Assembly: GCA_964016885.1 (NCBI GenBank)
Contig: OZ024743.1
Span: forward strand, 281,852,001-281,916,000
Direction: 5' to 3'
DNA: 64,000 bases
Source of the DNA: Eledone cirrhosa
Lineage: Eukaryota
Shown here: one piece after another, positions 51-32,422 of the stretch
Layout of the letters: each line of letters opens with the position of its first letter
How positions within the stretch are numbered: the first letter of the stretch is position 1
Notes under the pieces: generated by a model
Database searches by the model: none
What the model saw: the letters and a program-made list of their open reading frames with translations, nothing else
What the model was told of the DNA's origin: nothing
Made by a program: the position numbers and the translations under genes

Positions 51-3000
51 TTAAGTTATAGGAGGCTGCACAACATAAACAAAACCCAGGCTAATTAGAC
101 TGTCTTTTTCGAACTCAACTGAGGTACGTTCATATCTTTTAGCTTCTGATAAAGCTAGGTGTGAAAATTGGATTGCCTTCTGAACACGTCCTGGTTTTCC
201 ATCTGATGTACACCCAAAGCTACATGCTGCAGCTTCTTTAAACCGCAACTCAGCACAACATAAAAGCTTCAGCCTACGTGATGATGGGCAGATTTCGAAT
301 TTATTAAGGCTGGTGAAACATGGAAAAGAGATACCAGCTGGTCTGAAAACACTGTACCCACAACAACTGGCAATAAAAAACTGAAAAAACTCTGAGAAAC
401 TAAATAAGAACAACCGGCCATTCCCTGCACATCATCATAGACTGAAATCAAGGTACAAATTGTTGTCCTTAAATGCACATAGGCTATGCAATAAGATATA
501 TCTTTTTGATTCCTACATCAAAAGTATCAACCCTGATTTCATTACAGTCATGGAAACATGGGCACATTCCTTACTCTGTGATGGGGTTTTCAGCATAACT
601 GGCTACAACTTGTTTCGTAAAGACCACATTAATCGTGGTGGTGTAATGGTCTACATTCGTTCAAACTTTTCAGCAATTCCTTGTGTTGATTTGAACCAAT
701 CGCAGCAAGAAGTATTTTTCTGCGATGTACGTATGACCATGTCAACACTGCTACTTGGAGTTGTTTACCGTCCCCCAAATTACCATCATTACACTCAACT
801 TTATGATATTCTCAGAGCTGCTGCCAGGAAAAGAGCCACTTATGTTTTTATTGCAGGGGACTTCAATCACCCTGAGATTGACTGGGAAACCTTTTGTTGG
901 CTGCAAAGTGCAAATGATTTCCTTGAGCTAGTGCTGAAAGTAGTCACCTCCCCAACAAGAGGTAACAACATTTTGGATCTACTCTTCACCACTACTCCTG
1001 AAATGGTCATTAGTGTTACTACTGAGAAACCTTTACGTGACTCTGATCACAACCATCTCCAAACTGCTCACTTTGACTGGAATAAAGCCGACTGGAACTG
1101 TTACTGCACCAAGCTGCAACGTCCAAACTGGCTTGAATTTTATGACTCTGGAGATGTCAACACTGTACTCCAGAACATCCTGAACTCAATATCGACAGCA
1201 TGTGCAGCAACGGTGCCACGTAAGCAGAAAAAACATCCCAAAAGTGAAATTTGGGAGACTGCAGCAGTTCGTCTTACCAGGAAAGAACATTGTAATGCTG
1301 AAAGTGAGTACAAATTGCATAAATCAGATATCTATAGGAAAAAAAGCGAAATAAATCATCCAACCATCTCAAGCAGGTGACAAAAATAGCAGTGCTTGAC
1401 AGTAAGGTGTTCTGGAAATATGTACACTCAAAGCAGAGGCCTCACTTTCCAGTTAGTCCTCTTTGCAATCCCCACACAAGCCAGATTACTGACGACCCCA
1501 AAGAATGCGCAGAACTCATTGCTGAATGCTATGCAGGCATTTTCACTGTTGAAAACCAAAATGTACTATCTCCACCACCTCTAAGATCAAATTCTATTAC
1601 AACTATGGAATTTACACCTGCAATGCTGCGACATCACCTTAAAAATAAACGCAACCATGCCTCTCCTGGTCTTGATGGTGTTACTCACCTGCTTCTTAAA
1701 TGTGGTGGGTACTTCCTTCTGCACCAGCTATCACTCTTCTTTCAATTCTGTCTGAACGGTGCTACTCCGGAGCAGTGGAAAACTGCCAGTGTCATTCCTC
1801 TGTTCAAAAAGGGTAACCGCACATCACCTGTGAAATATGTCCAGTCAGTCTTACTAGCTGCATTGCCAAACTGATGGAATCCTGTGTCAGAGAAATACTT
1901 TGGAACTTCTGTAACTCTCACAGTCTTATCTGGCCCTCACAATTTGGATTTATCCCTAACTCCAGCTGCTGTCATCAACTTATAGAGTTTCTTGAAGACA
2001 TCACCCGGATCACTAATGGTGGCTCATGGGTGGATGTTGTTTACCTTGACTTTGCTAAAGCTTTCAATTCTGTGCCACACAAAAGACTTATGGCAAAACT
2101 CTCTGCAATGGGTGTGTAGGGTGATCTTTTTAACTGGTTGAAGTCCTTCATTCTCAGTCGAAGAGAGGTAGTCATGGTTCTAGGATAGCATTCATCACCA
2201 TATGAGATGTCATCTGGTATACCACAGGGATCTGTTCTTGGTTCCCTTTTGTTTGTGGCATATATTAATGACATAGATGCCAACTTAAAGAATGCCACAG
2301 TACTGAAATATGCAGATGACATCAAGCTGTACCTTGAGATAAAAAGGACAGATCCTGAACACTATAGATCTTTCCTGCAATCAGACCTGGACACAATGCA
2401 ACAATGGATCATGGACTGGCAACTCAAGTTGGCTGTTGACAAGTGTACCACCATGCAAGTGTACCACCATGTACTCCCTTTACAACACTAATATCAAGAA
2501 GTCTTCTTGTGAACGTGACCTGGGCATTATTGTCAGCAGTGATTTGCGTTGGATGAAGCACATCTCTAAAATTGTCAAGAAGGCCGAGGGTGTCTTAGCA
2601 TCACTCAGCAAGACCTTTGTCAACCGCTCCAGCTATCTATTTAAGGCTGTACATAGCTATGGTGCGGCCACACTTAGAATGTGCATCACCAGTATGAAAC
2701 CCCAATCTTGCTCAGAACATTGACCTCCTGGAAACTGTTCAGAGACATGCAGCCAAGCGAATAGCCTCCATCAGGCATCTACCATACTCTCAACGCCTTG
2801 TTTCCCTGGGCATGGATACATTGAAACTCCGACGTCTGGCAACTGACTTGGTAAACACCCACAAGATTATTAACCATCTTGCCAACAACAACCCTGAGCA
2901 CCTTTTTGATTTCCATGTGTCTAACACATGTGGACAAGCATGGAACAAACTACCTGCATCAGTTGTTAGCTGTCGAGACACTGCATCCTTTAAAACCTCC

Positions 3001-3192
3001 ATGCTTCCTGAGATTCGCTAACACTGCACCTGATGTCCACCCTCCATACACACGCACACATGTATTTCCTGACTCATACTCTGTTCATTTTCCTGACATT
3101 TGAACATTATTCTATGTACTATACATGCACCTTTGATGAGTTGTAGTGCACCTGAGCACTGTACACAATAATTTCATTATTATTATTATTAT
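51..3192 (+). mobile_element. CR1-clade LINE, degenerate; 5' boundary uncertain; ends in (ATT)n tail
   Basis: Endonuclease and RT motifs at 460-3021, then a 3' UTR and the tail 'caataatttcattattattattatt' ending at ~3192. Confidence 0.85.
460..3021 (+). pseudogene. CR1-type ORF2 (AP endonuclease + reverse transcriptase), broken by frameshifts and stops
   Basis: Motifs across ORF fragments: METW, GVVYRPPN, AGDFNHPEIDW, PTRGNNILDLLFT, SPGLDG, QFGF, YLDFAKAF, GIPQGSVLG, KYADD, ERDLGIIVSSDL. Confidence 0.9.
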
Positions 3193-4335
3193 TCTGTCTA
3201 CACCCGCTACGCGGAGAGCTGGGCATGCCGTGGCTGATGATGCACAGACATGCGCTCAGGCTACGACATATCCACCTCTTCCTCGACAGTGATCAGGTGT
3301 AGTCGCCCTTTGCTAGACACATGTTTCCCCAGCTTGTCTCCTTGACGGAGCTGCAGTCCTGGGTCAAGCGAAGACCGAGAGGAAGTGCTTGATGACTGGA
3401 ATGTCTTACAGCCCTCGACCAGTCGGGCAATACGATCGCTGGAAGATCCACCTTGGCATTCTATAGAGTTCTCCAGAAGAGATTGGCTAGTTGGTTTTCG
3501 TTGATGCCTAGAGTCTCCCCAAGGACGTCGTCACTCTTTCCCTCCACTAAGGAGAACTTTCAGGCTGGGGCACATGGACAACTTCCAGATATCCCTGGCT
3601 TAGCAGTGCTACCGAGGAGCCTTGCCAGTTCGGGATAAACTCTACAGGCATGGAAATGTCATCAGCTGGGCCTGTCCAAGATGCGCGCAGGGCGATGAAA
3701 CCGTCCTGCATGCACATGTCCAGTGTCCGTGCATTGCTGACTTGTGGGTTTATACCGAACACCTGCTGTCACGTGTAGAACGGATCGGGCTATCAGCTGA
3801 ATCCATCATGAGAATTGCCCCATCGCCTTCCTTTAGCCGAGAAGAACAGACAGTTTTTATCTGCCTGGTGGCCATGGTAAAAGAGATCGTATGGTGGACA
3901 CGTCGGAAAGGGTTGAAGACAGGTACACTCCTCTTTGGTCACGCCCTCATTAACTTTTTCAGGTTTCACCTGAAAAGGAAAATCAGAGTGGCGAGGGAAG
4001 TGCTGCCTTCCAGCCTGTTTGTTGAAAGGTGGGTGAGAGAGGCAAGAATGGCCTGTGTGAATGGGCCTACCCTGAGCGTGTGCCTGTAGCATCATAGGAG
4101 GAAAACTGGAAGAGGGAATTTGCCCTAGCAGTCAGGGTAATCGTGGCTGTTCTTGTGGGCTTTCTCCATGAGCGACCCTCGGAGGTCTCCTCCCTATTGG
4201 GGAATTTTTTCATTGTTTCCTTTTTTGTCACATACTCTGTTTTTGTTTTTACATGCAGAAATGCCCATTTGTATTGTCCTGTGTTGTCCTTAATGTTATA
4301 CTTTGTGTAAACCCTTGTGGTTAATAAAGAAAGCC
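3193..4335 (+). mobile_element. 5'-truncated Tx1/L1-clade LINE (ORF2 C-terminus + 3' UTR)
   Basis: LGMPWLMM and the zf-RVT motif CPRCAQGDETVLHAHVQCP; 3' end 'aacccttgtggttaataaagaaagcc' then ATT repeats; starts directly after the CR1 (ATT)n tail. Confidence 0.9.
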
Positions 4336-4555
4336 TTATTATTATTATTGGTCTAAGCGGACGTATTTTGCTCGCTCACAGTAAGTCGCTTTATTTGCCT
4401 GTTTAAATTATTTGTTGTAAAATATTTCTTGTTGTGTAAGGGATATAAGCCCTTAGACTTTGCCCCGTGAAGGGAAAAGTATAATATTTGGGCCTTTTGG
4501 CCCAAATATTTGAACTTTTTTTTACATGTTAAAAAATTTACGAAGAAAAAAAAAC

Positions 4556-6546
4556 ATGGCTGAGCCACGCCCCCCCCCCCCCCCCGCGATATGTCGGCTG
4601 TCGTGCGACAACGACGTAGAAGTTGAGAGGAGCGCTACAGCGAAATTAACACACATTGATAACACAAACACCACCACAAACAAGGTAAACAAAGACACCA
4701 ATGATACCAATAAGAACACTAATTTTGAAAAAAATGACAGTAACAGCGACAACGAAAATACAGATAACAAAAAAAAAAATAACAAATACAACAATTATAT
4801 CGACACCACTAACATGAAAACAAATAGCGACAACATCAACAGCAACAATACCAACTGCACCGAGAACAACGGTGGCAACAAAGACAACAATGATAACAGC
4901 GACAGTGCTAACAACAACACCAACAAGAACAACGTCAACAACACCCCCAACGAAAACAATACCACTTTCGCTGCGGCAGCAGCAAAAAAGAGGCCATGCT
5001 TCAACATGGACCTCTCAAACAAAGATGAAAAGTTGGCCCAGGCATGGAAGCTCATCAAGCAAGAGCAAACTTGGGCCAACTTAACTGTCCCGGTAGAAGC
5101 TATTGAGGCAGTGGAGCACAAAACGGTGTATTATAGATGCATCTCAGCACAAACCAAAAGGGTAGCGTTAATCCCACAAGAAGATATCGAAGTCGCGCTG
5201 AGGTGCATCAGAGAAGACACCCAGTACATAGAGAGAGGCAGACAGTACGGCACCATTTCGGTGTTGTTCAAGTCAGAAGCCCTCGCGATGAAACACGCCA
5301 TGACTCCTTGCAAAACCAGCAAGGTCATAATGTACCCCTCCCACATGGGAAAAAGAACGGCCCGTCTCCGCATTCCCAGAATCCCACCAGGACTTGACAT
5401 GTGGTGGCTTCTGCGATGTGTGATTGTGGAGGGGACGGATACAGTCCCTATAGAAGTGACCAGAACGGCCAGAGAGGACTGGTCCGGAGTTGACCTGGAG
5501 ATCCTTCTCCAGATCAGGCCCGAGAATGTGAAGACAATCCCAGACCATATCCAACTTCAGAATGGGACTGTCATTCACATTATGACCGAAGGCAAAAGGC
5601 CGCAGTGTTTTGTTTGTGGGGAAAAAACCCATTTGCGAGCCTTCTGCCCTCAACTGCTGAAAGAGGCAAGAGGTCGAAAGGCTCCACTGCTGCCGACGCC
5701 GGGGCGAGGACCACAACCAACACCTGCACCGGCAAAACCACCAACAACAACACCAATAGAAAAGACACCACCAACATTGACAACCCAGGGGGGAAACGAG
5801 GAAAGCTGTCAACCCCCCCCCCCCCAAAAAAAAATACACACACACCAATAAAACCTTAAACATACATACAAACACACTTACAGACACAGACCGCTCATCT
5901 ACCAGTAGTGAAGATGAGGGAAATCCCAAATCCCCCAAAATACAAAAAAGGAAACAAAAAGAAAATAAAAAAACTCAACAAAGCACAAAAGCACCCACAA
6001 TAAAAAAACGCAGACACCACCCACGCAAACATCTCTCCAATAACACCAACATCAACACCACCATCACCATCACCAGAATCCCCCACACGCAAACAACCGA
6101 AACAGACGGAAGAACAAATATACACACAAACATCTGAAACCACAGACATCGCACTCACAACAAACACAGATACAACCGAAACAACACCACCAAAACCATC
6201 ACCACCACATCCACGCAAACAAATAAAATCACACCAACAAAACATACAAAACTTCGTGCTCGTCAGGAGGGCCAACAAGGAACTGATGGCCCTCGTAGCA
6301 CGAAGTGAAAATATACAAAAAGAGGGGGAAATGTTTAAATCGAGCACATTTCGCGTGCCGGAAGATTAGGTTCTGGTGCGAATGTCGCTCGACATATTCA
6401 AAGAAATACGAGACAGCTTTCCTCGGGACGTGGGAAACCCGAACGTAAAACCCACTTCAAGACTTTTAAAGGGGTTCCCAAAAGAAACCCCACTAACTAT
6501 GGAGGTCGAACAACTCGACCTTCACAAGAGCCCGGAAGGTAAGTAA
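4556..6546 (+). pseudogene. Tx1 ORF1 (Asn/Thr-rich N-terminus, putative RRM-like region, CCHC zinc knuckle, Pro/Thr-rich tail), frameshifted near the C-run at ~5815
   Basis: CFVCGEKTHLRAFC fits CX2CX4HX4C; a downstream frame continues to ...HKSPEGK* at 6546. Confidence 0.8.
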
Positions 6547-6577
6547 ACCTTCCTCTCTCTCTGTTTAACCTGCCAAC

Positions 6578-9500
6578 ATGGCCGTATTAAGAGTAGGATG
6601 TTTAAATGTTCGAGGCCTGGGATCGTCCTGGAAGCAGGGTCACCTGCTCAACGACCTCAGGTTTATAGAAATGGATGTAATTGCAGTCAGCGAGACCAGG
6701 ATTTCCGACACGCGCGCACTAGCCCCCATTTTCGACGACTATCAGATCTTTGCATCTGTTAGCCATCCGGGAATGGGAGGCGGGGTGGAAGTGCTGTTTA
6801 GGAAAGGCCTGGATCTCGAGGTAAGGTAGATGTTCCGGGACCCGGACGGGAAGTTGGTGGTCCTGGACGTGAACAATAATGAAGGTGGTGCCTTTAGACT
6901 GGTGGCCGTCTATGCTCCTACTGGGGCAGGAGGGCCGGACTTCTTTAGACGCCTGGAAGCCTTTCTGGGTACGTCTCGCCCTTTACTGTTAGCGGGGGAC
7001 TGGAACGGCATCTTAGACGCACGCTGGGACTGTGTGGGAGTATCCGATAGGAGCGGGGGGTGCAAAAGCCTCAAGAACCTGATCAGCCAGTTCCAACTGT
7101 CTGACAGGTACCGACTAGATTTCCCTAATGCGCCAGTGTGGACCTGGGCTAACCGCATAGGGTCATCTAGATCGTATATAGACAGGATATTCATTAGGAA
7201 AATAGACAGAAATAGTGTAAGCTGTCCACGTTTTGAAACGGTCGCCTATTCAGATCACAAGTTTGTGATCTGTATGGTCGACCTAGATAAGACGCGTAGG
7301 TTAGGACCTGGTTACTGGAAGCTAAACATGTCATTTCCGGCACGTAAGGCTTACAGGGACCAGGTCAACAATTTAGTTAAGAAAAAGTTGACAGGGGGAG
7401 TCGTCAACAATAGATGGTGGGGGGCTCTCAAAAGAGAGATTAGAGTAATGTCGATAGAGTTTAGCAAAGAAGTAGCATTAGAGAAAAATAGAAAGGAGGG
7501 AGAGTTGGTAGATAAGTTAGACGAGGCTATTCGTAGTGGCATTGCAACTGATGTGCTAGCGGCGAGAATGGCATTAGACCATTTCTTCAATGCGAAACAC
7601 GAAGGTTGCATTGTCAGAGCTAAGGCGCGTGCTCTGAGAAACAAGGGAACCAAAGCTGTTCGATGGGCCCGCGTGGTAGAGGCGCAGCTTGGTAATAAAA
7701 CCACGATTCGGTCTTTGACGGACCGAGACGGGCTCGAGCTGAGCGATTCCAAGAGGATGTGTGAGGCCTTTCGCCAGCATTTTGCTCGGTTGTTCGGGGG
7801 AAGTGGCGGGTCAGAGATGGTGGGCCACTTCAGTCCCTACCTCGATGGCTTGCCGCAACTCTCGACGGCTGACGCTGGGCGCTGCGAAAGGCCAATTACT
7901 TCAGCCGAGATTCAGGATGCCCTTGTAGGCTGCATGAGGCGCAAGTCACTCGGTTTTGATGGTCTGCCCTACGAGCTTTACGTAAATATGCCAGACTTGT
8001 TCTCCAATCTCCTCGAAGCGCTCTACTGCAACTGGCAGCAAAACGGGAGTATTCCCAGTTCTGTGAGCCGGGGCGTAGTGACGCTGATAAGGAAAGACGA
8101 GAACAAGAGGGACACATTAGATAATTTCAGGCCCATAACACTGCTCAACACAGAGTTTAATATTTTGGCCAGGGTGTTAGCGAAGAGGTTGGCGCTTGTC
8201 GTCGGGGATTTGGTTGGTGAGGCGCAAACTTGCGCAATCTCAACCAGGTCCATACACGACAACCTCCACCTAATGCGATACATCATAGAGAGGGTAGGGT
8301 GTAAACCTGGCTTCGGTGGGGCTCTGATCAATTTAGATCAATCGAAAGCATTCGATAGGGTCGACTATCGGTACCTGGAGGCTGTCCTCAAGGTGGCTGG
8401 CTTCGGCCCCGTCTTCAGAAGCTGGATCGCTGCAATGCACAGCGGCACCTGCTCGATGGTCAAAATTAATGGCCACCTCTCGGAACCGTTTCAGGTCTCC
8501 CGATCGGTCCGTCAAGGGTGCCCTCTCTCCTCCTTTCTGTACGTATTGACTCTCGAGCCTTTACTGCGGAAGCTGGAGCTGTTGCAGGCATCCCGCTCGA
8601 ACCAGGACGCGGAAAGGCTGTGTCGGCTTATGCGGACGACATCACCGTGATGGTGTTGGACACCTCAGAAATCGAGGTGGTCGGCAACTTATTGGAGGAA
8701 TATGAAAGGTTGACGGGAGCAAAACTTAACCCGGAAAAGTCAGTGGGCTTGCAGCTCGGCACCTGGAGAGGCAAGTCCATGCCGTCCAACAGCGTCGTTA
8801 GGATGAGGACGGACGGACCGCTAAAGTTGCTAGGGGTTTGGTTCGGGCCAGACCTCCAGGTGGATAAGAATTGGGACGAGGTGACGGGCAGGGTAGTCAG
8901 TCTCACCCAGAAATGGGCTGGGATGAAGCTATCACTGAAAGGTCGTCCGTCATCTACTACCGTCTGACTGTCGTCGCTTGCCCCGTTCGCGCCTCGCCAT
9001 CTTGGAGCGGCTCCTCTTCAAATTCTTGTGGAGGGCTCAGGTTCCGCTGGTGAGGCGGTCCATCTGCTGCCAGCACCCTCTACGTGGAGGGCTGGGCATG
9101 CTGTGGCTAATGATGCGCAGGCACGCGCTGAGGCTGCGGCATCTCCAGATATTCTGCCTAAACGGTGAACAGGTGTGATCGCCGTTTGTCAGACGGGCCT
9201 TTCCGCAGCTCGTTTCTTTGACTGAGTTGCAGTCCTGGGTCCAGAAGAGACCGAAACTGGGTGACTGGCATCTGGAATGTTGTCAGGCACTCACTGCCCT
9301 CTACCAGGCGGGAAATGCGGTCAGTGGAACTTCCACTCTCGAGTTCTATAGAGGATTAGTGGTGGGCAAGTGCGACGTCGCACTCGGAGAGGCTCTGGGA
9401 GTCAACGAAGTCGAACTAACCAGTCTGTACCGGAGGACTTTCGAGCCGGGGACGATGGATAATTTCCAAAAATCCCTCGCTTGGCAGTGCTACCGGGGGG

Positions 9501-9970
9501 CACTACCGGTTCGAGATAAACTCTACAGGAACGGAAGTGCTGTCAGACGGACCTGCCCGAGATGCGCGCAGAGCGACGAAACCGTTCTGCATGCACTCGT
9601 CCAGTGTCCGTGCATTCCTGACTTGTGGAGTTATGCTGAACAGCTGTTGTCGCGTGTAGAACGGATCCGGCTATCGGCCGAGTCCATAGTGAAGATCGAC
9701 TCGCCGCCTTCTTTTGGCCAGGAAGGGCAGGCAATTTTCCTCTGTCTGGTGGCAGTAGCGAAAGAGGTTGTATGGTGGACGAGGTTGAAAGGACTGAAGA
9801 CAGACACTTTTCTCTTCGGCCAATCCCTCATCAACTTTTTCAAGTTTCACTTGGAAAGGAAGGTGAGGGTGGAGAGAGAAGTGCTGCCCCCCAGTACATT
9901 TGCTGAAAGGTGGGCGAATGTGGCGAGAATGGCCCGTGTGAGTGGGCCTACTCTGGTCATGCGGCTGTAG
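6578..9970 (+). pseudogene. Tx1 ORF2 (EN + RT + zf-RVT) with a few stops and frameshifts
   Basis: CLNVRGL, AVSET, AVYAP, AGDWN, SDH, GPGYWKLN, NFRPITLLN, LDQSKAFDRV, VRQGCPLS, AYADD, CPRC..H..C. Confidence 0.93.
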
Positions 9971-10266
9971 GTAGGTAAATTTGAAGAGGAGAGGGGTGCC
10001 CTTCCAAGGTTCTCTCGAAGCGTCGGGTCGTTCAGGACTGGTGGGGTACCTGAGCGAACCCTAGGTGGTCATCCCCCCTATTGGGGAATGTTTTCTTGTT
10101 GTAATTTTCTTGTTACTTTATTGTTACTTTGTTATTGTTACTTTGTTTATTCATATTGTTTACTCGATTTTTCTGTAAAACCCCACTGTCCCAGTCTTTT
10201 GTATTGTCCCCTATATGTCGGCCCTTGTGGCCAATAAATGAAATCATTATTATTATTATTATTATT

Positions 10267-12351
10267 CGTACATGCCAGACTTGTTCGGCGACCTCTTGGC
10301 AGATGTCTACTGCAACTGGCAGCAGAACGGGAGCATTCCCAGTTTTGTGAGCCGGGGAGCGGTGGCGCTTCTGAGAAAAGACCTGAACAAAGGGGACATT
10401 ATAGACAACTTCAGGCCCATAACTCTGCTAAACACAGAGTTCAAGATTTTGGCCAAGGTGTTAGCAAAGAGATTGGCGTTTGTCGTCGGTAATTTGGTGG
10501 GAGATGCGCAGACATGCGCCATTCCAGACAGATCCATCCACAACAACCTCCTTCTAAATGAGATACATCATAGAGAGGGTGGTTAAAGAACCTGGCACGG
10601 GTGGGGCTCTGATCAACTTGGATCAATCTAAAGTATTTGATAGAGTCAACCATCGGTACCTGGCTGCGGTCCTCGAGGTGGCCGGCTTTGGGCCCATTTT
10701 TAGAGGCTGAATTGCTGCAATGCACAGCGACATCTGCACGATTGTGAGGGTGAATGGTCACCTGTCGCATCATGTGATCAATGGTCACCGTTCAGCATCA
10801 TGCGCTCAGTCCGCCAGGGTTGTCCCCTCTCGTCCCTCTTGTACGTACTGGCTCTCGAGCCATTACTGCACAAATTGGAGACCATGAGGGGGGTACCTCG
10901 CGAACTGGGATGCAGAAGATCCGTGTTGGCTTACGCTGACGACGTCACCATGGTGGTGTCGAGCACCAAACATGTCCAGATGCTCGGCCCTGTTCTCAAG
11001 GAATACGAAGCGGTGACAGGAGCAAAGATAAACCAGAAAAAGTCGGTAGGCTTGCAACTCGGCACCTGGAGAGGCAAGTCCATGCCGCCTGACAGCGTCG
11101 TGGGGCGCTGGACGGACGGGCCGGTTAAATTGCTTGGGGTCTGGTTCGGTCCGGACCTCCAGATGGAGAAAAACTGGAGCGAGGTGACGAGAAGAGTGGC
11201 TTCTCTCACCCAGAAATGGGCTGAGAGGAGGCTGTCTCTGAAAGGTTGGGCGGAGGTGGCGAATGCGTACATCGCGTCTGTCATCTGTTACCGCTTAACC
11301 GTCGTACCTTGCCCCCATCCAACTCTGACCAAAATGGAGTACCTTCTCTTCCGCTTTTTGTGGAAGGGACATGGTCAAACGATCCATCTGCTGTCAGCAC
11401 CTGTTGCATGGAGGACTGGGCATGCCATGGCTAATGATGCCTAAACATGCGCTGAGGCTGCGACCTCTCTGGTGCTTCCTTGACGGTGAACAGGTATGGT
11501 CGCCGTTTGCCAGACTCGCTTTTCCCAAGCTCGTCTCCTTGACGGAGCTGCAGTCCTGGATCAGAAAAAGACCGAGGGATAGCACTTGGAAGCTAGAATG
11601 TCTCCAGGCGTTCACTGCCCTCTACCAGCTGGGCACTGACATTGGTGGAACATCCACCTTGGCATTCTATAGAGGGCTAGTGGAGGGGAAGAGCGACGAC
11701 GTTCTTGGGGAGACCCTGGGCGTCGAAGACGATCAGCTGTTTGCTCTCTTCAAGAGAACTTTCAGCCCCGGACCTATGGACAATTTCCAGAAATCCCTGG
11801 CCTGGCAGTGCTACTGGGGAGCGTTGCTGGTTCGGGATAAGCTCTACAGACACGGGGTGCCATCAGCCGAGCCTGTCTGAGAGGCGCGCAGGACGACGAA
11901 ACCGTCCTGCACGCACTCGTTCAGTGCCCGAGAATTCCTGACTTGTGGAGCTATGTCGAACAGCTGCTGTCGCGTGTAGGACGGATCCAGTTATCGACTG
12001 AGTCCATTGTGCAAATAGCCCCACCATCCTCCTTTAAAGAGTAGGAAGGACAAGCAATCTTCATCTGCCTGGTGGCCATGACGAAAGAGATTGTGTGGTG
12101 GACAAGTTTCACTTGTAGCGGAAAATCAGGGTGGAAAGGCAAGTGCTGTCTTCTAGTAAGTTTGTTGAAAGGTGGGTGAAAGTGGCGAATCTGATCCGAG
12201 TGAACTCTGAGTATGCACCTGTAGACTGAGGAGTGGGAAAACTGAGAGAGGGCACTTGCCCTGGTGGTCAGGGTGGCCGTGGTCTTTTGTGTGGTTTTCG
12301 CCATGAGTGACCCTCGGAAGCTCCCTCCTTATTGGGGAATTTTTGTTATTT
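10267..12351 (+). mobile_element. 5'-truncated Tx1 LINE (third variant); 3' UTR cut off at the junction with the R4-like fragment
   Basis: RT motifs NFRPITLLN, RQGCPLS, AYADD; begins right after (ATT)n at 10246-10266; 3' UTR 'cctattggggaa'-type motif near 12326-12340. Confidence 0.88.
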
Positions 12352-12707
12352 GAATTTTGTGTTTCAGGAAGATTGAGATCACAGGTGAGATTTTGAAGAT
12401 GTCCAGTGATTTCAGAATCAGAATGTGGTATGCTGTCAAAGGCTTTTTTATAATCAATCCATGCAGAACTGAGATCTGTGTTTATTATGACAGTTCTCAA
12501 GGATCATATGATTAATCAAAAGTTGATCTTTCCAACCATATGAACCTCGTCGGCACCCTTTTTGTTCACCTCCAAAAACACGTATGGTTTTTCCATGAGA
12601 ATAGAGGTTAATAGTTTATAAGTTGTGAACAAGCAGGTTATCGGGCGATAGTTTTTTGGATCTTTGGTTTCGTTGTTCTTTGATAGAAGGTAGGTAATGC
12701 CTCTTGT
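12352..12707 (-). mobile_element. R4/Dong-like non-LTR RT fragment
   Basis: Minus-strand translation gives GITYLLSKNNETKDPKNYRPITCL, RRGSYGWKDQLLIN and AWIDYKKAFDSIPH; 5' side abuts (TAA)n. Confidence 0.75.
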
Positions 12708-12727
12708 TGTTATTATTATTATTATTA

Positions 12728-13884
12728 TCTGCTGTCAAAACCCACTACGTGGGGGGATGGGCAAGCCATGGCTGATGATGCACAGACACGTGCTCAGGCT
12801 ACGACATCTCCACCTCTTCCTCGACGGTGATCAGGTGTGGTCGACATTTGCTAGACGCGTCTTTCCCCAGCTCATCACCTTGATGGAGCTGCAGTCCTGG
12901 GTCAAGCGAAGACCGAGGGGGAGCGCTTGGAGACTGGAATGACTTCAGGTGCTCACAGTCCTCGACCAGTCAGGCAATATAATCAATAGAAACTCCACCT
13001 TGGCGTTCTATAGAGGATTAGTGGAGAGGAAAAGCGACGACGTACTTGGGGAAACTCTAGGCGTCGACGAAAATCAACTAGTCAATCTTTTCGGAAGAAC
13101 TTTCGAGCCGGGGCCTATGGACAATTTCCAGAAATCCCTGGCCTGGCAGTGCTACCGAGGAGCTTTGCCAGTTCGGGATAAACTCTACAGGCATAGAAGT
13201 GCTGTCAGCCGGGCAGGTCCGAGATGCGCGCAGGGCGACGAAACCGTCCTGCATGCACTTGTCCAGTGTCCGAGATTTGCTGACTTGTGGGTTTATGTCG
13301 AACACCTGCTGTCGCGTGTAGAACGGATTCGGCTATCAGCTGAGTCCATCGTGAAGATTGCCCTGCTCTCTTCCTTTAGCCGGAAAGGACAGGCAGTTTT
13401 ATCTGTCTGGTGGCCATGCGAAAGAGATAGTATGGTGGACGCGTCTGAAAGGGCGGAAGACAAGCACTTGCCTCTTCGGTGATGCCCTGATTAACTTTTT
13501 AAAATTTCATTTGAAAAGGAAAATCAGGGTAAAGAGGCAAGTGCTCTCTTCCCAGCATTTTGTTGAAAGATGGGTGAGAGAGGCAAGAATGGCCCGAGTG
13601 AATGGGCCTACTCTGAGTATATTCCTGTAAATTGAAGGTGGAAAACTGGGAGAGGGCACTTGCCCTGGTGGTCAGGGTCACCGTGGCTTTTTTAATGGGC
13701 TTTCTCCACGATGGCCCTCGGAAGTCTCCCCCCTATTGGGGAATTTTTCAATGTTCTTTTTTGTTACATCCTCTGTTTTTTTGGTTTTTTTTACACGCAG
13801 AAATGCCCATTTGTACCGTCCTGTATTGTCCTGTACTGTCCTTAATGTCTACTTTGTGTAAACCCTTGTGGTTAATAAAGAAAG
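12728..13884 (+). mobile_element. 5'-truncated Tx1 LINE, subfamily A
   Basis: CCQNPLRGGMG through the zf-RVT region; 3' end 'aacccttgtggttaataaagaaag'; starts in an ATT tract. Confidence 0.9.
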
Positions 13885-14071
13885 GGCGGTGGATTGGCAG
13901 TATCGGTAGAGGGTCTGACGCCATGCTTTGCAGCAAAGAGTTACGGCCCTTTATGGTCTGAGTTCAAATCCCGCCGAGGTTAACTTTGCTTTTCATCCTT
14001 ACGGGGTCGATAAAATAAAATACCAGTAATACACTGGGATAATTGCTGGCCTTGTGCCAAAGGTAGAAACA

Positions 14072-14073
<2 letters not shown>
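13884..14073 (+). mobile_element. tRNA-headed SINE (family S1) with (ATT)n tail
   Basis: A-box-like TGGCAGTATCGG, B-box GAGTTCAAATCC, central 'tttcatccttacggggtcgataaaataaa', 3' 'tggccttgtgccaaaggtagaaacaattatt'; ~15 copies in the window. Confidence 0.9.
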
Positions 14074-14125
<52 letters not shown>

Positions 14126-17100
14126 GGCGACCTGCGTAGGAAATCGTATTATCGTGAGCTCAGCAAAGGTTTGTTGTTTTCAGATGTTTCAAATTGCCAG
14201 TTATGGAAAATTTTTGTTGTTAAGTGTTTATAAGTTCACATATATTGCTTTCTGAAAAGTACACAAAAAAATATTGGGGCCTTGAGCCCAAAACTTAAAC
14301 TTTTTATTTATCAAACAAAATATTTCTTTGAATAAAAAACATGGACAACAAATTTATTGTTTTAACAGACCCCCTCCCCCCACACACACCACCACCACCA
14401 CCACCAACACCAACACCATTGTAAGACTTGCTACGGTTGCCGACACTGAAAATATAATTAATAGCAGTTTGAATTATTTAGATTTGCCGCATAAAGACAT
14501 GGATTTCCCGCCATTACCAATAACTGCAGGTGTTAAAGCCGCCACCCCCACCACCACAATGTCAAAAAGAACAACGAACACCACTGATACCACCACCACC
14601 ACCACAGCGACAACAGAAACCCCCAAAAATTAATTATTATCTCGTGACATCGAAATGGATTCACCCAGAATCGACTCTTCCACACCGAACACCACTGACA
14701 TCACCACCACCTCCACCACAACTGAAACTAAAAATAACAATAACAACAACAGCAACAACAACAATGAGAATAACAACAACAACATCAACACCACCGCAAA
14801 ACAAAATGTGTCATTTGCCAAAGCAGCCAAGAAAAGCGAAACAATCGAGGTAAGCCAGGATGAATTAAATGAAGCCAAGCGAATGGTAAAAAAAGATGGG
14901 TACAGGGTCAGCCTTACCCCCCACCCCCACACACCTTATAGAATGGACCATCGGCGCCTATGCACCGTGTCATATCGGACGATAAACACAAAATCACACC
15001 GAGTGGAACGGGCATCCGAGTCCCCAAAACAAAAATCTTTGGGACATGTGTGGGCGAAAAAAACCCACATCAGACGTGGGCAGAAATATGGAACTGTGGA
15101 CGTGTTCTTTGGAACACCACAGGAAGCCAGAGAGCACTCAATGGCCCCATTAAGAAGTGACGACTTCACACTCGTCCCAAGCTATTGTGGTCAGAGAGAG
15201 ACTCGTGAAGATCAGGGTGACCCACGTTCCACCGGCCATCGAAATTCCCTGGCTAATGGCTGCCGTCCTTGCCGGCATCGAGGCCAACACGAAAATAATT
15301 GAAGTAACAAAAGAAAAGCAGGAGAACTGGTCCGGATCTGGGATGGAGCTTCTGCGGACCAAAAAAACATTGAGGAAATTCCAGAGGTGATAGACCTCAC
15401 TGACGGCAGCCACCTCACCATAATCGTTGAGGGTAGAAGGCCTAGGTGTGTCGTTTGTGGTGAAGGAAAAGCTTTCTGCCCTCAGGCTAAAAAGTTGAGG
15501 ACACCTCTCTTACCCACCTCAGTGACTCAACCATCAACACCACCAGCAGCAGAAATGGCAGCAACAACTGTAGCAGCAACAACAGAAGCAACTGTAGTAG
15601 CAACAACCCCAGCAACAATAGCAAAACCAACACCACCACCAACCACCGCGCCAGAACTATCACCAGCGCCTCCACCATCCACCACGCCACAACCAAAACC
15701 AACGCCTGTGGAGGATTTTCCACTCCCCAACCTATCGCAACTGGAGACAGATTGTGACGACGAGGAGTGGGAAACGGTATTAGGAAAAAAGAAAAAAAGA
15801 AAAAGAAGCCAAAAAGGAAAAAATATCTTCTTCCTTCCCCCTTCAAAAACAAAATACAGGGGGAAACAAATAAACTAACAAACAAAAAAGTTAGGACAGC
15901 TATGCCACCATCCACACCAGTATCACTAACCCCATCACCACAAACACCAACCCCATCACCACAAACACCAACCCCATCACCATCATTAATCCCAACACCA
16001 TCATCACCAACACCACAAAAGTCACCAAAAAGCGAAACGGAAACAAACCCACAACAAACGCAAACAAAACAAAACAACCAAAACGATACACACTACACAG
16101 CATTACATTTGAACAACTAACTATTACACTACATCCAACACAACACCAGCATCACAGAAAAAGACTACACAACAACCCAAAAGTTCACACCACCTCCACA
16201 CATACAAATCACTCGCATCACACAGAAAACGTACGCGACACTAAAACAAAAATTCCCCAAAGACATCGGAGACTTCCGACAAACACTCTCCGGAGGAGGC
16301 CACAAGCAGTGAGAAGGATGGAAAAACCATCCTCCCCCTACGAAAAGTGAAGTAAGTGGTCTTTCCCATCTTTTTCCACTCCTTTTCAACATGACCTCAC
16401 TCAGAATGGGCAGCATAAATGCACGTGGCCTGGGGTCGTCATGGAAGCAGAGCCACCTGCTCAACGACCTCAGGTCACTAAACATAGATATGGTGGCTAT
16501 CAGCGAGATCTGAATCTCTGATGCATGGGCCTTTGCACCGATCTTCGGTGGCTACAATGTGTACGCATCTCCCAGCCGTCCTGGATCGGGGTAAGGAGTT
16601 GCTGTGCTTTTTCGGAGAGGTATGGATCTCGCCATACGGGCCATCTTCCTGGACCCAGAAGGTAAGTTGGTGGTGATGGACGTGACCAGCGGAGACGGGC
16701 AAGCTTTCAGGCTAGTGGCCGTCTATACCCCGACAGGAGCAAGGCGGCCTGATTTCTTCTGGCGTCTGGAGACCTTTCTTGGAACGTCCCGCTCTTTAGT
16801 GTTAGTGGGCGAACTGGATCTTAGATGCACGCTGGGACTGTGTGGAATTAGCAGATAGGGGAGGAGGGTGCAAGAGCCTCACCAATTTGCTCAGGCGTTT
16901 TGAACTGTCTGACAGGTACCGATTGGATTTCCCGAATGTGCCAATGTGGACTTGGACAAACCGCGTCGGGTCATCCAGATCATATCTAGATAGAGTATTT
17001 TGTAGGGAAATAGATAGGTCTAGCATAGGCTGTCCACAATTCAAGATAGTCAGCTACACGGACCACAAATTCGTGATCTGAGTGGTTGACTTAGATAGGC

Positions 17101-19923
17101 TTCATAGACAAGGATCCGGCTACTCGAGCTAAACGCGACCTTACCAGCACGCAAGGCCTACAGAGACCGGATTAGCGAACTAGTTAAGCGGGCATTGACG
17201 GGGGCCATCGTCAACAACATGTGGTGGTTTGCTCTGAAAAGAGCAATTAGAATAGAGTCCATTAGGTTTAGTAAGGCTTTAGCAATAGAGAAAAATAGAG
17301 CAGAGGGAGAATTAGTTAGAAAATTAGACGAGGCGCTTAGCAAAGGCATCGCGACCGACGTACTTGCGGCGAAATTGGCCTTTGACCAATTCTTCAATGC
17401 AAAGCACGAATGCAGCGTTGTCAGGGTTAGGGTGCGTGCTCTCAGACGCGAGGGGACGAAAGCGGTTCAATGGGCCCGAGTGGCGGAGGCGCGTCGTGGC
17501 AACAAAGCCATGATCCGGTCTTTGGTGGACCACGACGGGCGCATGCTACTCGATCCCGGGCAAATGTGTAAAGCTTTTCAGCAACACTTCGCTCAGCTGT
17601 TCGGGGGCAGCGGCGGGCCGGATCGAGGGATGGCCTTTAGTGTCTACCTCGACGGACTGCCGTGGCTCTCGGCCACTGAGGCGGAGTGTTGCGAAAAGCC
17701 GATAACAGCCGCTGAAGTACGGGAGGCAATGACTGGCTGCACAAGGGGTAAATCGCCTGGTTTGGATGGTCTGCCCTATGAACTTTACGTACAGATGCCA
17801 GACTTGTTTGGAGGCCTCTTGGCGGACATCTACTGCAACTGGCAACAGAACGGGAGAATTCCCAGTTCTGTGAGCCGAGGAGCAGTGGCGCTGCTGAGAA
17901 AGGATCCGAACAAGGGGGATAACATAGATAATTTCAGGCCCATAACTCTGCTAAACACAGAGTTCAAGATTTTGGCCAAGGTGCTAGCAAAGAGGTTGGC
18001 ACTTGCTGTTGGTGACATGTGCCATTCCCGACAGATCCATCCACGACAACCTCCACCTCATGCGATACATTCTGGAGAGGGTAGCTAGGGAACCTGGCAT
18101 TGGTGGGTCCTTGATCAATTTAAATCAGTCGAAAGCTTTCGATAGGGTCGACCATCGTTACCTAGCGGCAGTCCTGAGGGCGGCTGGCTTTGGGCCCATC
18201 TTCAGAGGCTGGATCGCTGCCATGCACAGTGACATCTGTTCTGTGGTGAGAGTGAACGGTCACTTTTCGGAACCGTTCAACATCATGCGCTCGGTCCACC
18301 AAGGATGTCCCCTCTCGTCCCTCTTGTAGTGGTGTCGAACGCCAAACATATCGAGGCGATCGGCATTACACTAAGAGAATACAAAGCGATGACAGGAGCA
18401 ATGATGAACCAGGAAAAGTCAGTGGGCCTGCAGCTCGGCACCTGGAGAGGCAGGTCCATGCCATCCAAAAGCGTCGTCAGGCGCTGCACGGACGGTCCGG
18501 TTAAATTGCTAGGGGTATGGTTCAGTCTGGACCTCCAGACGGACAAAAACTGGGACGAGGTGATGAGCAGGGTGGCTTCTCTCATCTAGAAATGGGCGGA
18601 GAGGAAGCTATCCCTGAAAGGTCAAGTGGAGGTGGCTAACGCGTACATCGCGTCCATCATCTACTACCGCTTGACCGACGTACCTTGTCCTAAGCCCCGC
18701 CTCACTGCGCTGGAGCGTTTGCTCTTTCGCATTTTGTGGAAGGGACGCGCTCCGATGGTCAGGCGGTCCATCTGCTGTCAACACCCGCTACGTGGAGGCC
18801 TGGGCATGCCATGGCTGATGATGCGCAGACACACGCTCAGGCTACGACATCTCCACCTCTTCCTCGACGGTGATCAGGTGTGGTCGACATTTGCTAGACG
18901 CATCTTTCCCCAGCATGTCTCCTTGGCGGAGCTGCAGTCCTTGGTCAAGCAAAGACTGAGAGGGAGCGCTTGGAGACTGGAATGTTTTCAGGCGCTCACA
19001 GCCCTTGACCAATCGGACAATGTGATCGGTGGAAACTCCACCTTGGCGTTCTATAGAGGATTAGTGGAGGGGAAAAGCGACGACGTACTTACGGAAACTC
19101 AAAGCGTCGACGAAAATCAACGAGCCAATCTCTTCAGAAGAACTTTCGGGCCGGGCCTACGGACAATTTCCAGAAATCCCTGGCCTGGCAGTGCTACCGA
19201 GGAGCTTTGCCAGTTCGGGATAAACTCTACAGGCATGGAGGTGCCATCAGCCAGGCATGTCCGAGATGCGCGCAGGGCGACGAAACCGTCCTGCACGCAC
19301 TCGTTCAGTGTCCGAGAATTGCTGACTTGTGGGTTTATGTCGAACACCTGCAGTCGCGTGTAGGACGGATCCGGCTATCAGCTGAGTCCATCGTGAGGAT
19401 TGCGCCGCCCTCTTCCTTTAGCTGGGAAGGACAGGCAGTTTTTATCTGTCTGGTGGCCATGGCGAAAGAGATAGTATGGTGGACACATTTGAAAGGGCTG
19501 AAGATGAGCACTTACCTCTTCGGTGATGCCCTGATTAACTTTTTAAAATTTCATTTGAAAAGGAAAATCAGGGTAGAAAGGGAAGTGCTCTCTTCCCAGC
19601 ATTTTGTTGAAAGATGGGTGAGAGAAGCAAGAATGGCCCGAGTGAATGGGCCTACTCTGAGTATGTGTCTGTAAATTAAAGGTGAAAAACTGGGAGAGGG
19701 CACTTGCCCTGGTGGTTAGGGTCACTGTGGCCTTTTAATGGGCTTTCTCCACAAATGTCCCTCCAAGTCTCCCCCCTATTGGGGAATTTTTCATTGTTAT
19801 TTTTTATTACATCCTCTGTTTTTGTTTTTTTACACGCAGAAATGCCCATTTGTACCGTCCTGTATTGTCCTGTACTGTCTTTAATGTCTACTTTATGTAA
19901 ACCCTTGTGGTTAATAAAGAAAG
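14126..19923 (+). mobile_element. Near full-length Tx1 LINE, subfamily A, copy 1 (ORF1 ~14341-16355, ORF2 16391-19674, both disrupted)
   Basis: ORF1 knuckle remnant RPRCVVCGEG..; ORF2 EN/RT/zf motifs; an internal deletion near 18327 removes the YADD segment; flanked by ATT. Confidence 0.92.
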
Positions 19924-19930
19924 TATTATT

Positions 19931-20462
19931 CTTTGAGTCTCAGTCATTGATGTTAGTTAACTGGAAAGTTTGTTGAAATGAATATCAAGCCACTACCTGC
20001 AGCCTCATATATTCAGGACGTATCGGAGGGTTCTTGCTGTCCCAGTAAGCATGCCTTCTGAAGCGTTCCAAAAAGCGTGAAGGGGCCAATTTTCTTTAAC
20101 CATCCCTGGAAACTTTTTGAGATAGTCCCTAGTGCGCCTATGACAATCGGGATCACTTTGACTTCATGGCAGTTCCAAATCCTTTTTACCTCCCACTTTA
20201 AGTCCTGGTACCAGTTAATTTTCTCCCTCTCCTTCTCTTGCACTCTCGTGTCGAATGGGCAGGCCACATCCACAATCAGGCACGATCTTTTTTCTTTGTC
20301 CACAACCACCAGGTCAGGTCTATTGTGTTCCAGTTTCTTGTCCGTCTGTATCCTAAAATCCCACAGCACCTTCACCTGATCGTTTTCTATCACCGCCTCT
20401 GGCTTATGCTCATACCACTTCTCAGAATGTGGTAAATTGTTTACTTTGCATAGGTGCCAGTG

Positions 20463-20463
<1 letters not shown>
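19931..20463 (-). mobile_element. 3' end of R4/Dong-like retrotransposon with restriction-like endonuclease (RLE) domain
   Basis: LWDFRIQTDKKLEHNRPDLVVVDK...IVDVACP...EKINWYQDL...VIPIVIGALG; flanked by TAA repeats on both sides. Confidence 0.85.
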
Positions 20464-20518
<55 letters not shown>

Positions 20519-20699: not shown

Positions 20700-21713
20700 C
20701 TCTCCTGTTCATAATCTTCATGGACAAGATTGACATGCACAGCCTAGCAACTGCAGGTATTTGCAGATGATAGGGTACTACTTAACTCATCAGAAGGTGA
20801 TCTACGACATGCACTTGATAGGTTTGCTGCCAAGTGCTGCATAGCAGGAATGAAATCTGTATTGCAAAGACTGAGACACTCATCCTCTCAAGGACGCCTG
20901 TGTAATGCACTCTACAGTGGAGTTCCACTGAAGCAGATAGAGAAGTCCAAGTATTTTAGGGCCAAATTCATGAGTGATGGATGGCAAGAGGGTGAATTAA
21001 GTGCAAGAATTACAGGAACTGGTGCAGTAATGTGTCAGATTCCACATTTGGTAATCAGAAGAAAGGAGGCAGTTGTAAAATCCAAACTCACTATCTTCAA
21101 TTCAGTATTCATGCCAATCCTTACCTATGGTTGTGAATGATCAAAAGAATATAATTGTGAGTACAAGTGACTGAAATAGAGGGTGGATTGGCAGTATCAG
21201 TAGAGGGTCTGACGCCATGCTTTGCAGCAAAGAGTTACGGCCCTTTATGGTCTGAGTTCAAATCCCGCCAAGGTTAACTTTGCCTTTCATTGTTACGGGG
21301 TCGATAAAATAAAGCACCAGTAATACACTGGGATAATTGCTGGCCTTGTGCCAAAAATAGAAACAATTATTACTCGCTTGAGTGCATAGCCCAGAGATCA
21401 GAGAGTCACTCCAGGTAGAGATGCTACTTCACTGAGAGATCACAGCTTCGACACAATAGACATGTTGCTAGAATGCCTAAGGAAAGAATCACTAGACAGG
21501 TTTTACAGGCAAAACCAACAGGCAGGAGACCCAGAGGTAGACACTGAGCAAGATGGTTGGATAACATTCATTAGCTTGACTTGAAGCTCCAGCCAGATCA
21601 ATTGGAGATGGTTGCTTCTGACGGGACCCACAGGAAGGAGTATTTCTGCCCCCAGGACCTTCTCAGGAAGAAGAAGAAGAAGAAGAAGAAGAAGAAGAAG
21701 AAGAAGAAGAAGA
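20700..21713 (+). mobile_element. Degenerate RTE-clade LINE 3' part with (GAA)n tail, interrupted by an S1 SINE
   Basis: KYF..KFMSDG..ELSARI..IFNSVFMPILTYGCE; (GAA)n at 21667-21713; a related 3' end lies inverted at ~25419-25675. Confidence 0.65.
21180..21371 (+). mobile_element. SINE S1 copy
   Basis: Near-identical to 13884-14073. Confidence 0.9.
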
Positions 21714-22719
21714 AATTCCACTCAGAATATATCGGTCAACTCTGGGATACAGTAAAAGAAAGTTGTCTAATGCACTATGATGAGGGATCAAACTGAAAAC
21801 CACATGATTGCAAAGTGATCTTCTTAACCCCACAGCCAACAAATATAACTTTTTGTTAATAACCTGATGCTGTTGTTAACAATAACCACTCAGCTGTGAG
21901 GATTGAGGTAGTGCCTATTTTCATCAAGTTGGCTACAGTTGTTGTTTGATCCAGGTCAGACCTGCTCCAGGATATTTATGATTAAAGGTATTCCAGTCAT
22001 GACCATCCTGTTTTATTTTATTCAGATATTGTTTTTAGAGCTATATTATACAACTTGAGAGAGATTTGACTGTTATTTGTTAAAAACATAATATACACTT
22101 TATTGGATATGCCTCTTCTCTAAAGAAAAACATTCCTCTTTCCCAATTGTTATTCTCACTACATAACAATCTGGGAGGTCTGTTGGAAAATTCATTTAAA
22201 TAATAGGGTTCTTTGGTAGTGAAAAGGTTAGGGACCACTGATACAGAGGTTTCTCTCATTGGTTCATTGACTGAGGTAAACAGTGTAAGTGAAGTACAAT
22301 GTCTGTTACAAAAACCCAATTAATTTAGTTCAGAAATTATTGCTGACAGGAGCCAAAATGGGGGTGGGATGGGAGTGAGAAGAGAGCTGATGAACCCCTT
22401 CTCTGTGGAAAACAAAATAATAAAACTAATAAGAAAATCAAAAAGACCAAAAATAAAAAGACCTCCAACCCACCATCTTTCCCTGCTGAACAAGATATGT
22501 AAGAATTATAAGAGGCGCCATAGTTTAGCATATATCTTTGTAGTATCAAGTGTGATGACTTCTATTCTAATTGAAGTCTCTTTCTAAACCCTGCCTTTGT
22601 TTAACAGTAGAGAAGAGAAATCAAAAGAAAGTTTCCTTTTGTGGAATCTATGGAAATAATTACAAAATAAAAGACAAAACCACATAAATTGTCAGTTTGT
22701 CGAGGGATTTCACAATATT

Positions 22720-26312: not shown

Positions 26313-26758
26313 TAAATTTAAATATGTATTGATACATTAGCATAGTATTATATATATATTATCATCGTTTAACGTCGGTCTTCCACACTAGCATGAGTTA
26401 GACGGGAGTTGTCCCACTTGAGACAAGATTGGTCGGGTGACCGTGTCTCGCTCGATATATATATATATATATATATAGGAACCAGTAAGACCCCGACAGC
26501 TGAGCTCAAGCCGTTTCGACGGCTAATTCTGTCCAGAATTAGCCGTCGAAACAGCTTGAGCTCAGCTGTCGGGGTCTTACTGGTTCCTATATATATATAT
26601 ATATATATATCGAGCGAGACACGGTCACCCGACCAATCTTGTCTCAAGTGGGACAACTCCCGTCTAACTCATGCTAGTGTGGAAGACCGACGTTAAACGA
26701 TGATGATGATAATATATATATAATACTATGCTAATGTATCAATACATATTTAAATTTA
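26313..26758. repeat. ~446-bp near-perfect palindrome
   Basis: Arms are reverse-complementary around the centre at 26532/26533, with one mismatch and one 6-bp (TGA)2 indel. Confidence 0.95.
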
Positions 26759-26797
26759 TATATGTGTTATATATTTGAGTTGTGGCTGTTGATATAC

Positions 26798-28289: not shown

Positions 28290-28367
<78 letters not shown>

Positions 28368-32216: not shown

Positions 32217-32312
<96 letters not shown>

Positions 32313-32422
32313 ATAATAATAATAATAATAATAATAGTAATAATAATAAAATTGAAGACTAAAATCCAAAGAGGGCTCGATAAGGAAAATATATATCAAA
32401 TATATAAGAACCGTAGAGCAAA

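Follow-up and report, generated by a model that had tools for sequence, protein, structure and literature searches.

A 64,000-nucleotide stretch of the genome of Eledone cirrhosa (assembly GCA_964016885.1, contig OZ024743.1, positions 281,852,001 to 281,916,000 of the forward strand; hereafter the window, with all coordinates counted from its first base) contains, between positions 3176 and 20517, a train of long interspersed elements (LINEs) chained to one another through tracts of the microsatellite (ATT)n, with a second, shorter cluster further along. The question raised by this locus is whether the LINE seeks out (ATT)n, or whether such a chain can come about in another way: through a tail that the element itself encodes, through an endonuclease that recognizes only a short motif in which the tracts are rich, or through duplication or misassembly of DNA at the repeats. 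The best explanation of the whole, and in our judgment probably the correct one, is that a LINE lineage of the Tx1 type prefers (ATT)n as its target and that the train grew by many separate insertions into it.

Seven plus-strand LINE copies of one lineage were found by self-BLAST of the window and a read-out of the junctions; copies A to E make up the first locus and copies G and H the second, and all seven are decayed, with stops, frameshifts, truncations or deletions. Copies B (4350–10245), E (14126–19923) and H (40736–46404) are full length and each begins with GG; copies A (3194–4335), C (10267 to approximately 12346), D (12728–13884) and G (40335–40681, 347 bp) are truncated at the 5' end. 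In every copy, full length or truncated, the 15 nt upstream of the 5' junction agree with (ATT)n at all 15 positions or at 14 of them, and four of these seven ATT-preceded junctions are truncations. A score of at least 13 of 15 is reached at 307 of 83,794 non-LINE site-strands (0.37%). At the 3' side, five of the six intact ends lead into ATT (with one mismatch in A and over 7 bp only in E), the sixth, that of copy D, joins a short interspersed element (SINE) directly at 13884, and the 3' end of copy C is lost. The 3' ends are exact, reading ...GAAAGC^ATT or GAAATC^ATT (the caret marking the junction), and poly(A) is present at none of the six intact ends. These observations agree with the initial annotation of the window, made from the sequence alone, which had placed the junctions to within 1 base of where we find them and had reported ATT before every 5' end and after nearly every intact 3' end.

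Occupancy of other microsatellites points the same way. The window has 14 ATT/AAT tracts totalling 375 bp, and none of the 92 other di- and trinucleotide tracts of at least 12 bp (1,863 bp) contains a copy, which bears out the earlier remark that (TA)n, (GA)n and (CA)n tracts are free of the LINE. Under a null in which any microsatellite could be entered, the probability of the observed placement is about 4e-6 for seven copies and about 0.03 for the two seed loci, and a Fisher test at the level of loci (two of four ATT loci occupied against 0 of 92 other tracts) gives p = 0.0013. Outside the two loci, the 64-kb window yielded no solitary LINE fragment. We hold it quite probable that the targeting of ATT by this lineage is real. 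The compound (GA)n/(GT)n microsatellite at 35315–36030, 700 bp long, likewise has no LINE insertion.

Several points weigh against so direct a reading of the counts. Only two loci are independent, five of the seven junctions falling within a cluster, and the orientation relative to the ATT strand, which all seven copies do share as had been claimed, rests on the same two loci, with 12 of the 14 ATT/AAT tracts lying on the plus strand and belonging to these elements. An AAT tract at 32311–32349 is empty, and target duplications are unreadable at the LINE copies themselves. In addition, if insertion needs only the motif WWY^ATTAT, 101 of the 155 sites in the window (65%) already lie inside ATT tracts, so that this null gives P = 0.05 for seven of seven copies and P = 0.42 for two of two seed loci; it uses the tracts of today, themselves enlarged by the insertions. 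What stands of the proposed (ATT)n-specific lineage is thus a preference, visible in truncated ends that abut ATT and across four subfamilies; strict specificity is unproven, given the share of motif sites within tracts.

The SINE supplies the evidence that the LINE junctions cannot. It is 187 bp long, with 15 BLAST matches in the window; the full-length copy attached to copy D occupies 13885–14071 on the plus strand. In a census of the 13 copies with a recognizable 3' end (two without one were left out), the bases that follow the SINE end are ATTA in 12 of 13, and 10 of the 13 have a target duplication, 5–19 bp long, that begins at the first base past that end. All ten duplications start with ATTA and are preceded by a pyrimidine (Y^ATTA), and the eight that lie in unique DNA show no extra ATT units and no added tail. 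Since all eight unique-site duplications start at the first base past the SINE end, the ATT found after the SINE is target DNA, and we reject both a self-encoded SINE tail and the suggestion that such a tail serves the LINE as a landing pad. The same duplications show how ATT would be regenerated on insertion, which supports the further proposal that insertions renew their target and stack in tandem, one after another.

This census also bears on the idea that ATT is a self-encoded tail of the elements in general and that the head-to-tail chains were laid down in single events by template jumping of the reverse transcriptase (RT). Such a tail would account for ATT on five of six intact LINE ends, and the D/SINE junction at 13884, which has no ATT, is what a template switch would give. 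Against it, the ATT that precedes three of the seven 5' junctions (3194, 12728 and 40335) does not come after any of these LINEs or the SINE, the SINE leaves no tail of its own, neighbouring copies belong to subfamilies 18–30% apart, and minus-strand elements are interposed among the copies; we consider this explanation very unlikely.

The LINE and SINE ends are alike in a second respect, each having a 4-bp stem and a CTTGT loop at 12–13 nt from the junction. The stems are of three different sequences: GGCC/GGCC in copy B (10220–10232, plus strand), AACC/GGTT at the equivalent position in the other LINE copies with an intact end (loops at 4314, 13865, 19904, 40661 and 46384), and TGGC/GCCA in the SINE (loop at 14051 in the copy beside D). 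The stem-loop pattern occurs at 13 sites, namely all six intact LINE ends and seven SINE ends, where 0.15 are expected per window, and is absent from five other LINE ends in the window (one CR1-like, one with a restriction-like endonuclease (RLE), three RTE-like). Covariation in the stem is 0.546, a value reached by none of 500 shuffles, the best slid control giving 0.214; three of the four stem pairs change on both sides, and 88.9% of cells are paired. A hairpin with compensatory changes common to both elements is described as the feature by which SINE-LINE partners are usually recognized (PMC4824008, PMC3472496), and the two also have a target signature in common, ATTA-type sequence following 12 of the 13 SINE ends and five of the six LINE ends. 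To be set against this, the pattern was derived from these same sequences, the rows compared are related, and a simple local alignment of the terminal 45 nt is weak (p 0.006–0.034 for copy B and 0.012–0.81 for the other five LINE ends). For these reasons a partnership is probable, not proven, and the SINE is best regarded as a co-targeted passenger with the LINE as its likely partner. No Rfam match at the gathering threshold and no ARAGORN gene was found in the window for a small-RNA head, and the status of the element as a SINE rests on its length, copy number and duplications. Two copies lie tail to tail at 27353–27683; the one on the plus strand is an extended form that carries a 16-bp duplication and resembles the variant at 37532–37749.

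If one enzyme moves both elements, their different placement becomes informative. An ATT tract lies upstream of seven of seven LINE copies and of 2 of 15 SINE copies (Fisher p = 2e-4), and 10 of the 13 SINE copies in the census are outside tracts, so that the nuclease alone would not be tract-specific, a further point against the simplest form of the preferred explanation. The SINE's placement speaks for a preference limited to a short motif, by which any WWY^ATTAT site is nicked, ATT tracts are merely rich in sites, and one permissive locus gathered copies: a SINE with the same 3' end sits mostly at isolated ATTA sites, and the motif null described above leaves two of two seed loci unsurprising. 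Yet a short motif predicts equal tract fractions for LINE and SINE, and those observed are unequal whether counted as 7/7 versus 2/15 or as 4/4 versus 2/15 (p = 0.004); nor, on a short motif only, is a window without a single stray LINE fragment expected. We think this alternative unlikely, though it deserves more weight than the others.

That the copies arrived separately follows from their divergence. Over the shared 3' kilobase they are 70–95% identical (G against B 59%, for the 3' end only), and comparisons that include open reading frame 2 (ORF2) separate at least four subfamilies: B; C; A; and D, E, G and H. ORF1 of B and that of H are only 37% identical. Adjoining copies belong to subfamilies 18–30% apart, copy D shares 92% identity with E and H and 81.5% with A, and no age order along the train is evident from the comparison of identities; the ATT habit is kept across all of these divergent subfamilies. 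We compared synonymous change in five copy pairs with a context-matched neutral simulation, and found an excess in all five: for H versus E in ORF2, 80 synonymous changes were observed against 56.7 under neutrality (p = 0.0005), for H versus B 370 against 214, for H versus C 108 against 60 and for H versus A 59 against 41 (p = 0.0005 in each), and for H versus D 30 against 22 (p = 0.04). With an excess in every pair tested, the copies must have diverged as working elements, and together with the 70–95% identity this argues for separate insertions.

The alternative, that the chains reflect tandem duplication or conversion at the level of DNA, or a misassembly joined at microsatellites, draws on two coincidences. 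One codon of the endonuclease is an in-frame stop in both E and H (16592 and 43130), and the 5' truncation points of A (3194) and D (12728) lie, in element coordinates, no more than about 5 nt apart. The common stop, which tells against independent arrival, could go back to a defective source that was mobilized in trans, or to local conversion; two of the five H-versus-E segments, moreover, are not significant alone (p 0.14 and 0.08). The truncation point is possibly a hotspot or the mark of a short subfamily, A and D being 81.5% identical and not closest kin. The divergence and the synonymous excess remain, as do the spacers between units, which at 7–57 bp are too short for likely misjoins, the absence of any N from the window sequence, and junctions at exact element ends. 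Misassembly and DNA duplication were accordingly rejected, and we find this class of explanation scarcely credible.

The ORF2 product of the LINE belongs to the L1 group. Pfam searches with copies B and H returned Exo_endo_phos, RVT_1 and zf-RVT, that is, an apurinic/apyrimidinic-type (APE) endonuclease, an RT and a C-terminal zinc knuckle, and in a search of solved structures, with matches from the LINE-1 ORF2p and R2 families only, LINE-1 ORF2p was the best relative (E 3e-28, 102 bits) and R2 next (53 bits). ORF1 of B and H has a CCHC knuckle (CX2CX4HX4C) and no Pfam match. A model of ORF1, built on a 2-sequence alignment, has a mean predicted local distance difference test score (pLDDT) of 73.8 and shows two folds like the RNA recognition motif (RRM); the top Foldseek matches are tandem RRMs (E 2e-5) at a low global template modelling (TM) score of 0.26, and VIA gave a best Z of 8.4 over 82 residues with a root-mean-square deviation of 3.0, for what is a common fold. 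LINE-1 ORF1p is absent among the fold matches listed, by which kinship is not excluded. A separate ORF1 with an RRM and a CCHC knuckle is characteristic of the Tx1 clade, in which target preference is common though not universal. Among named proteins, those nearest in sequence come from Argonauta hians, at 59% and 69% identity, and in an RT tree of 40 rows (35 of 214 collected proteins and 5 window pieces) the four window copies tested form a 100/99 clade with P0039, from A. hians, and with P0030. We infer membership of Tx1 from these features, the tree containing no named Tx1 references; no protein named Tx1, Keno, Kibi or Koshi appeared among the results of the homology, cluster and Atlas searches. 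Copies B, E and H have almost the same 8 residues in the endonuclease loop that corresponds to the beta-hairpin of L1, and sister lineages for the most part have a longer one; in L1-EN the same hairpin loop is reported to affect nicking specificity (PMC1950540). L1-Tx1 elements are given as a large class in Octopus vulgaris, at about 56 Mb of the assembly, where SINEs cover 11.6% (PMC13282606).

The ATT tracts of the train have been entered from the other strand as well, by two minus-strand fragments that the initial annotation had passed over. The first, an RT fragment at 12347–12709, is truncated at its 5' end and has lost its 3' part by deletion; it scores 50–62 bits against RLE-type relatives and 40 against a LINE relative. 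The second, at 19931–20463, comprises a 3' untranslated region and an RLE with a PD..D motif; its 149-amino-acid translation matches the R2 RLE domain (E 0.003) and the C-termini of proteins of 1,100–1,300 amino acids. These full-length relatives carry an RT and the PD..D nuclease motif, and of seven scanned all have RVT_1 and lack an APE domain; by pattern search all seven have only a C-terminal knuckle and no N-terminal zinc fingers (the relatives stand in here for the fragments, which are without an N-terminus). Pfam gave no match for either fragment, and an Atlas search with the RLE fragment returned eukaryotic clusters only, none with a family name. A single ORF with an RT, a C-terminal CCHC motif and an RLE but without N-terminal zinc fingers is the architecture described for R4/Dong elements, and (TAA)n is given as the Dong/R4 target in most insects, molluscs and cnidarians (PMC7998251). 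In the window, (AAT)n adjoins the 5' junction of each fragment and also the only 3' junction left intact. By architecture and target the two appear to be R4/Dong-like. Copy C most plausibly lost its 3' end through a deletion by which it was joined to the first fragment.

In order, then, the first locus begins with (ATT)6 at 3176–3193, into which leads the 3' end of a decayed plus-strand LINE present in one copy only (385–3175, 5' limit approximate; Pfam Exo_endo_phos and Exo_endo_phos_2, RT match at 1925–2368), and which we take, like the initial annotation, to be CR1-like from its protein and tail features, not from phylogenetic placement. The ATT that follows this element may be its own tail. 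Copy A follows, in which an 82–84 bp piece (approximately 3467–3550) is inverted relative to every other copy, and then an ATT spacer (4336–4349), copy B, of a divergent subfamily (ORF1 from 4556, ORF2 6578–9970, with stops and frameshifts), (ATT)7 at 10246–10266 and copy C, truncated within the RT. After the RT fragment comes an ATT tract (12710–12727) that serves as the 5' boundary of both that fragment, on the minus strand, and copy D, on the plus strand. Beyond D and its SINE, (ATT)18 at 14072–14125 precedes copy E (ORF1 from 14341, ORF2 from 16391, broken), and the RLE fragment, with (AAT)n on either side, leads to the closing (ATT)18 at 20464–20517. The second locus starts from (ATT)14 at 40290–40334, which closes a compound (ATC)n/(ATT)n microsatellite, and proceeds through copy G, (ATT)18 at 40682–40735 and copy H (ORF1 from 40950, ORF2 42929–46179, broken) to an ATT tract, a 5'-truncated SINE (about 46439–46597) and another ATT tract (46405–46609 in all). 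A third ATT locus, at 55065–55288, consists of a SINE (55085–55270) flanked by ATT, without a LINE; all of these lie on the plus strand.

How preferential insertion into (ATT)n might operate can be sketched from junctions and SINE duplications, which were read directly, with nicking and priming modelled on the known target-primed mechanism (PMC3747384). ORF2p would bind the hairpin with the CUUGU loop at 12–13 nt from the end of the RNA, and its APE endonuclease would nick the AAT strand at 5'-ATAAT^R (Y^ATTAT as seen on the opposite strand). The freed ...ATAAT end could then pair with AUU in the RNA, so that reverse transcription would be primed at a fixed position, and a nick in the second strand 5–19 nt downstream would give the target duplication. 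Insertion within a tract would leave the new copy flanked by ATT, and its own terminus, C^ATTAT, would make a further perfect site, whence the growth of chains. R4/Dong-like elements would use these tracts too, coming in on the opposite strand by means of an unrelated nuclease. Polyadenylation cleavage usually occurs 10–30 nt past AATAAA, and this signal stands 6–7 nt before the LINE end. Cleavage of the LINE RNA may thus fall within the tract that follows, leaving (AUU)n on the RNA for longer pairing, and such AUU-ended RNA is probably why the LINE is more tract-bound than the SINE. Pairing of the RNA has been raised as an extra filter (PMC1950540). As to the detail of nick plus RNA pairing, belief and doubt are about evenly balanced. 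Taken to its widest, the scheme would give octopods an old, diversified and strictly (ATT)n-targeted Tx1 lineage that recognizes a stem-loop instead of poly(A), owes part of its specificity to co-transcribed AUU repeats and drives a major octopus SINE family, and which together with Dong makes ATT tracts self-renewing sinks for multi-clade arrays genome-wide; this we offer tentatively, leaning somewhat against its holding in every part.

Other repeats of the window have their own links to simple sequence. Elements that we take to be RTE-like, again from protein and tail features and not from phylogenetic placement, end in (GAT)n at 26690–26721, 34662–34780 and 63920–63960 and, on the minus strand, at 30227–30270 and 57514–57547, which suggests a second microsatellite-linked family; three of four such ends found by pattern continue into (AT)n. 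Two LINE 3' fragments with (GAA)n ends lie at 21439–21714 and, on the minus strand, at 25414–25672. The arms of a 692-bp inverted repeat, at 32420–33111 and 33324–34009, are 98% identical, and a 120-bp repeat lies within it; the structure, perhaps a foldback element or DNA transposon of recent origin, stands just downstream of the empty tract at 32311–32349, there read as (TAA)n. A near-perfect palindrome at 26274–26767, centred near 26530, has (AT)n and RTE-like ends nested in it, and short arms like its own recur at about 28180–28290 and 47555–47630. A 114-bp unit occurs three times in tandem at 54462–54804, and a degenerate satellite of CAGAT-type units lies at 56630–57344.

Should the preference be borne out, (ATT)n would join the known targets of Tx1, a clade known to switch targets, and the abundant octopod SINE would have a candidate partner LINE. 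One enzyme with two cargoes unlike in their restriction to tracts would make the shares of endonuclease and RNA-DNA pairing testable, in a field where the basis of microsatellite targeting has been described as not well understood (PMC3812793), and self-renewing targets could explain some hotspots of transposable elements in cephalopod genomes. Our literature search found no (ATT)n-targeting Tx1 element and no Tx1 partner of an octopus SINE; Repbase lay outside that search, and the target may already be catalogued there.

Among known systems, the accounts we draw on record microsatellite targets of Tx1 elements in Kibi, (TC)n, Koshi, (TTC)n, and the crocodilian (TTCC)n/(TTTC)n elements (PMC4494074, PMC3812793), while Waldo and Mino are described as targeting ACAY and AC and Dong as targeting (TAA)n (PMC4494074, PMC3812793, PMC1635306). 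Kibi, Koshi and the crocodilian Tx1 elements are, as described, like the present LINE in being of the APE type and the L1 group and in entering one microsatellite in one orientation; they differ from it in target, in host, here a mollusc, and in the present LINE's terminal stem-loop without poly(A). The present LINE works like Kibi and Koshi but not at their targets: none of its seven copies adjoins a tract of the (TC)n/(TTC)n type, and the 15 AG/CT and 2 AAG/CTT tracts of the window are empty.

Dong/R4 elements are described as using the same microsatellite, (TAA)n, in insects, molluscs and cnidarians (PMC7998251, PMC1635306, PMC3812793) and as abundant in Octopus vulgaris (PMC13282606), but they do so with an RLE and a single ORF and on the opposite strand, where the present LINE has an APE endonuclease and two ORFs. 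Their meeting here would be a second convergence of APE and RLE elements on one target, after that of Keno (Tx1) and Utopia (RLE) on U2 small nuclear RNA genes, where Utopia is sometimes in tandem; the target reported there is a gene, entered by both at the same site, and here it is a microsatellite entered on opposite strands (PMC4640811).

For the SINE, the nearest parallel is the Tx1-Mar/SINEU system of crocodilians, in which a Tx1 element is inferred to mobilize the SINE, tandem insertions sandwich a duplication and some SINEs show a weaker preference; SINEU ends in poly(A), however, and that account reports no LINE with the SINEU-1 3' end, whereas here a structured 3' end is common to both elements (PMC4494074). 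LINE1-1_ZM with ZmSINE2-3 and L1-1_CR with SINEX-3_CR are described as pairs of an L1-group LINE and a SINE having a common 3' hairpin with compensatory changes, as here; a 2012 survey knew three such stringent L1-clade SINEs and calls structured-tail L1-group LINEs rare (PMC3472496). Those stringent pairs are from plants and algae, and the pair proposed here would be an animal one, without poly(A) and targeted to a microsatellite (PMC3472496).

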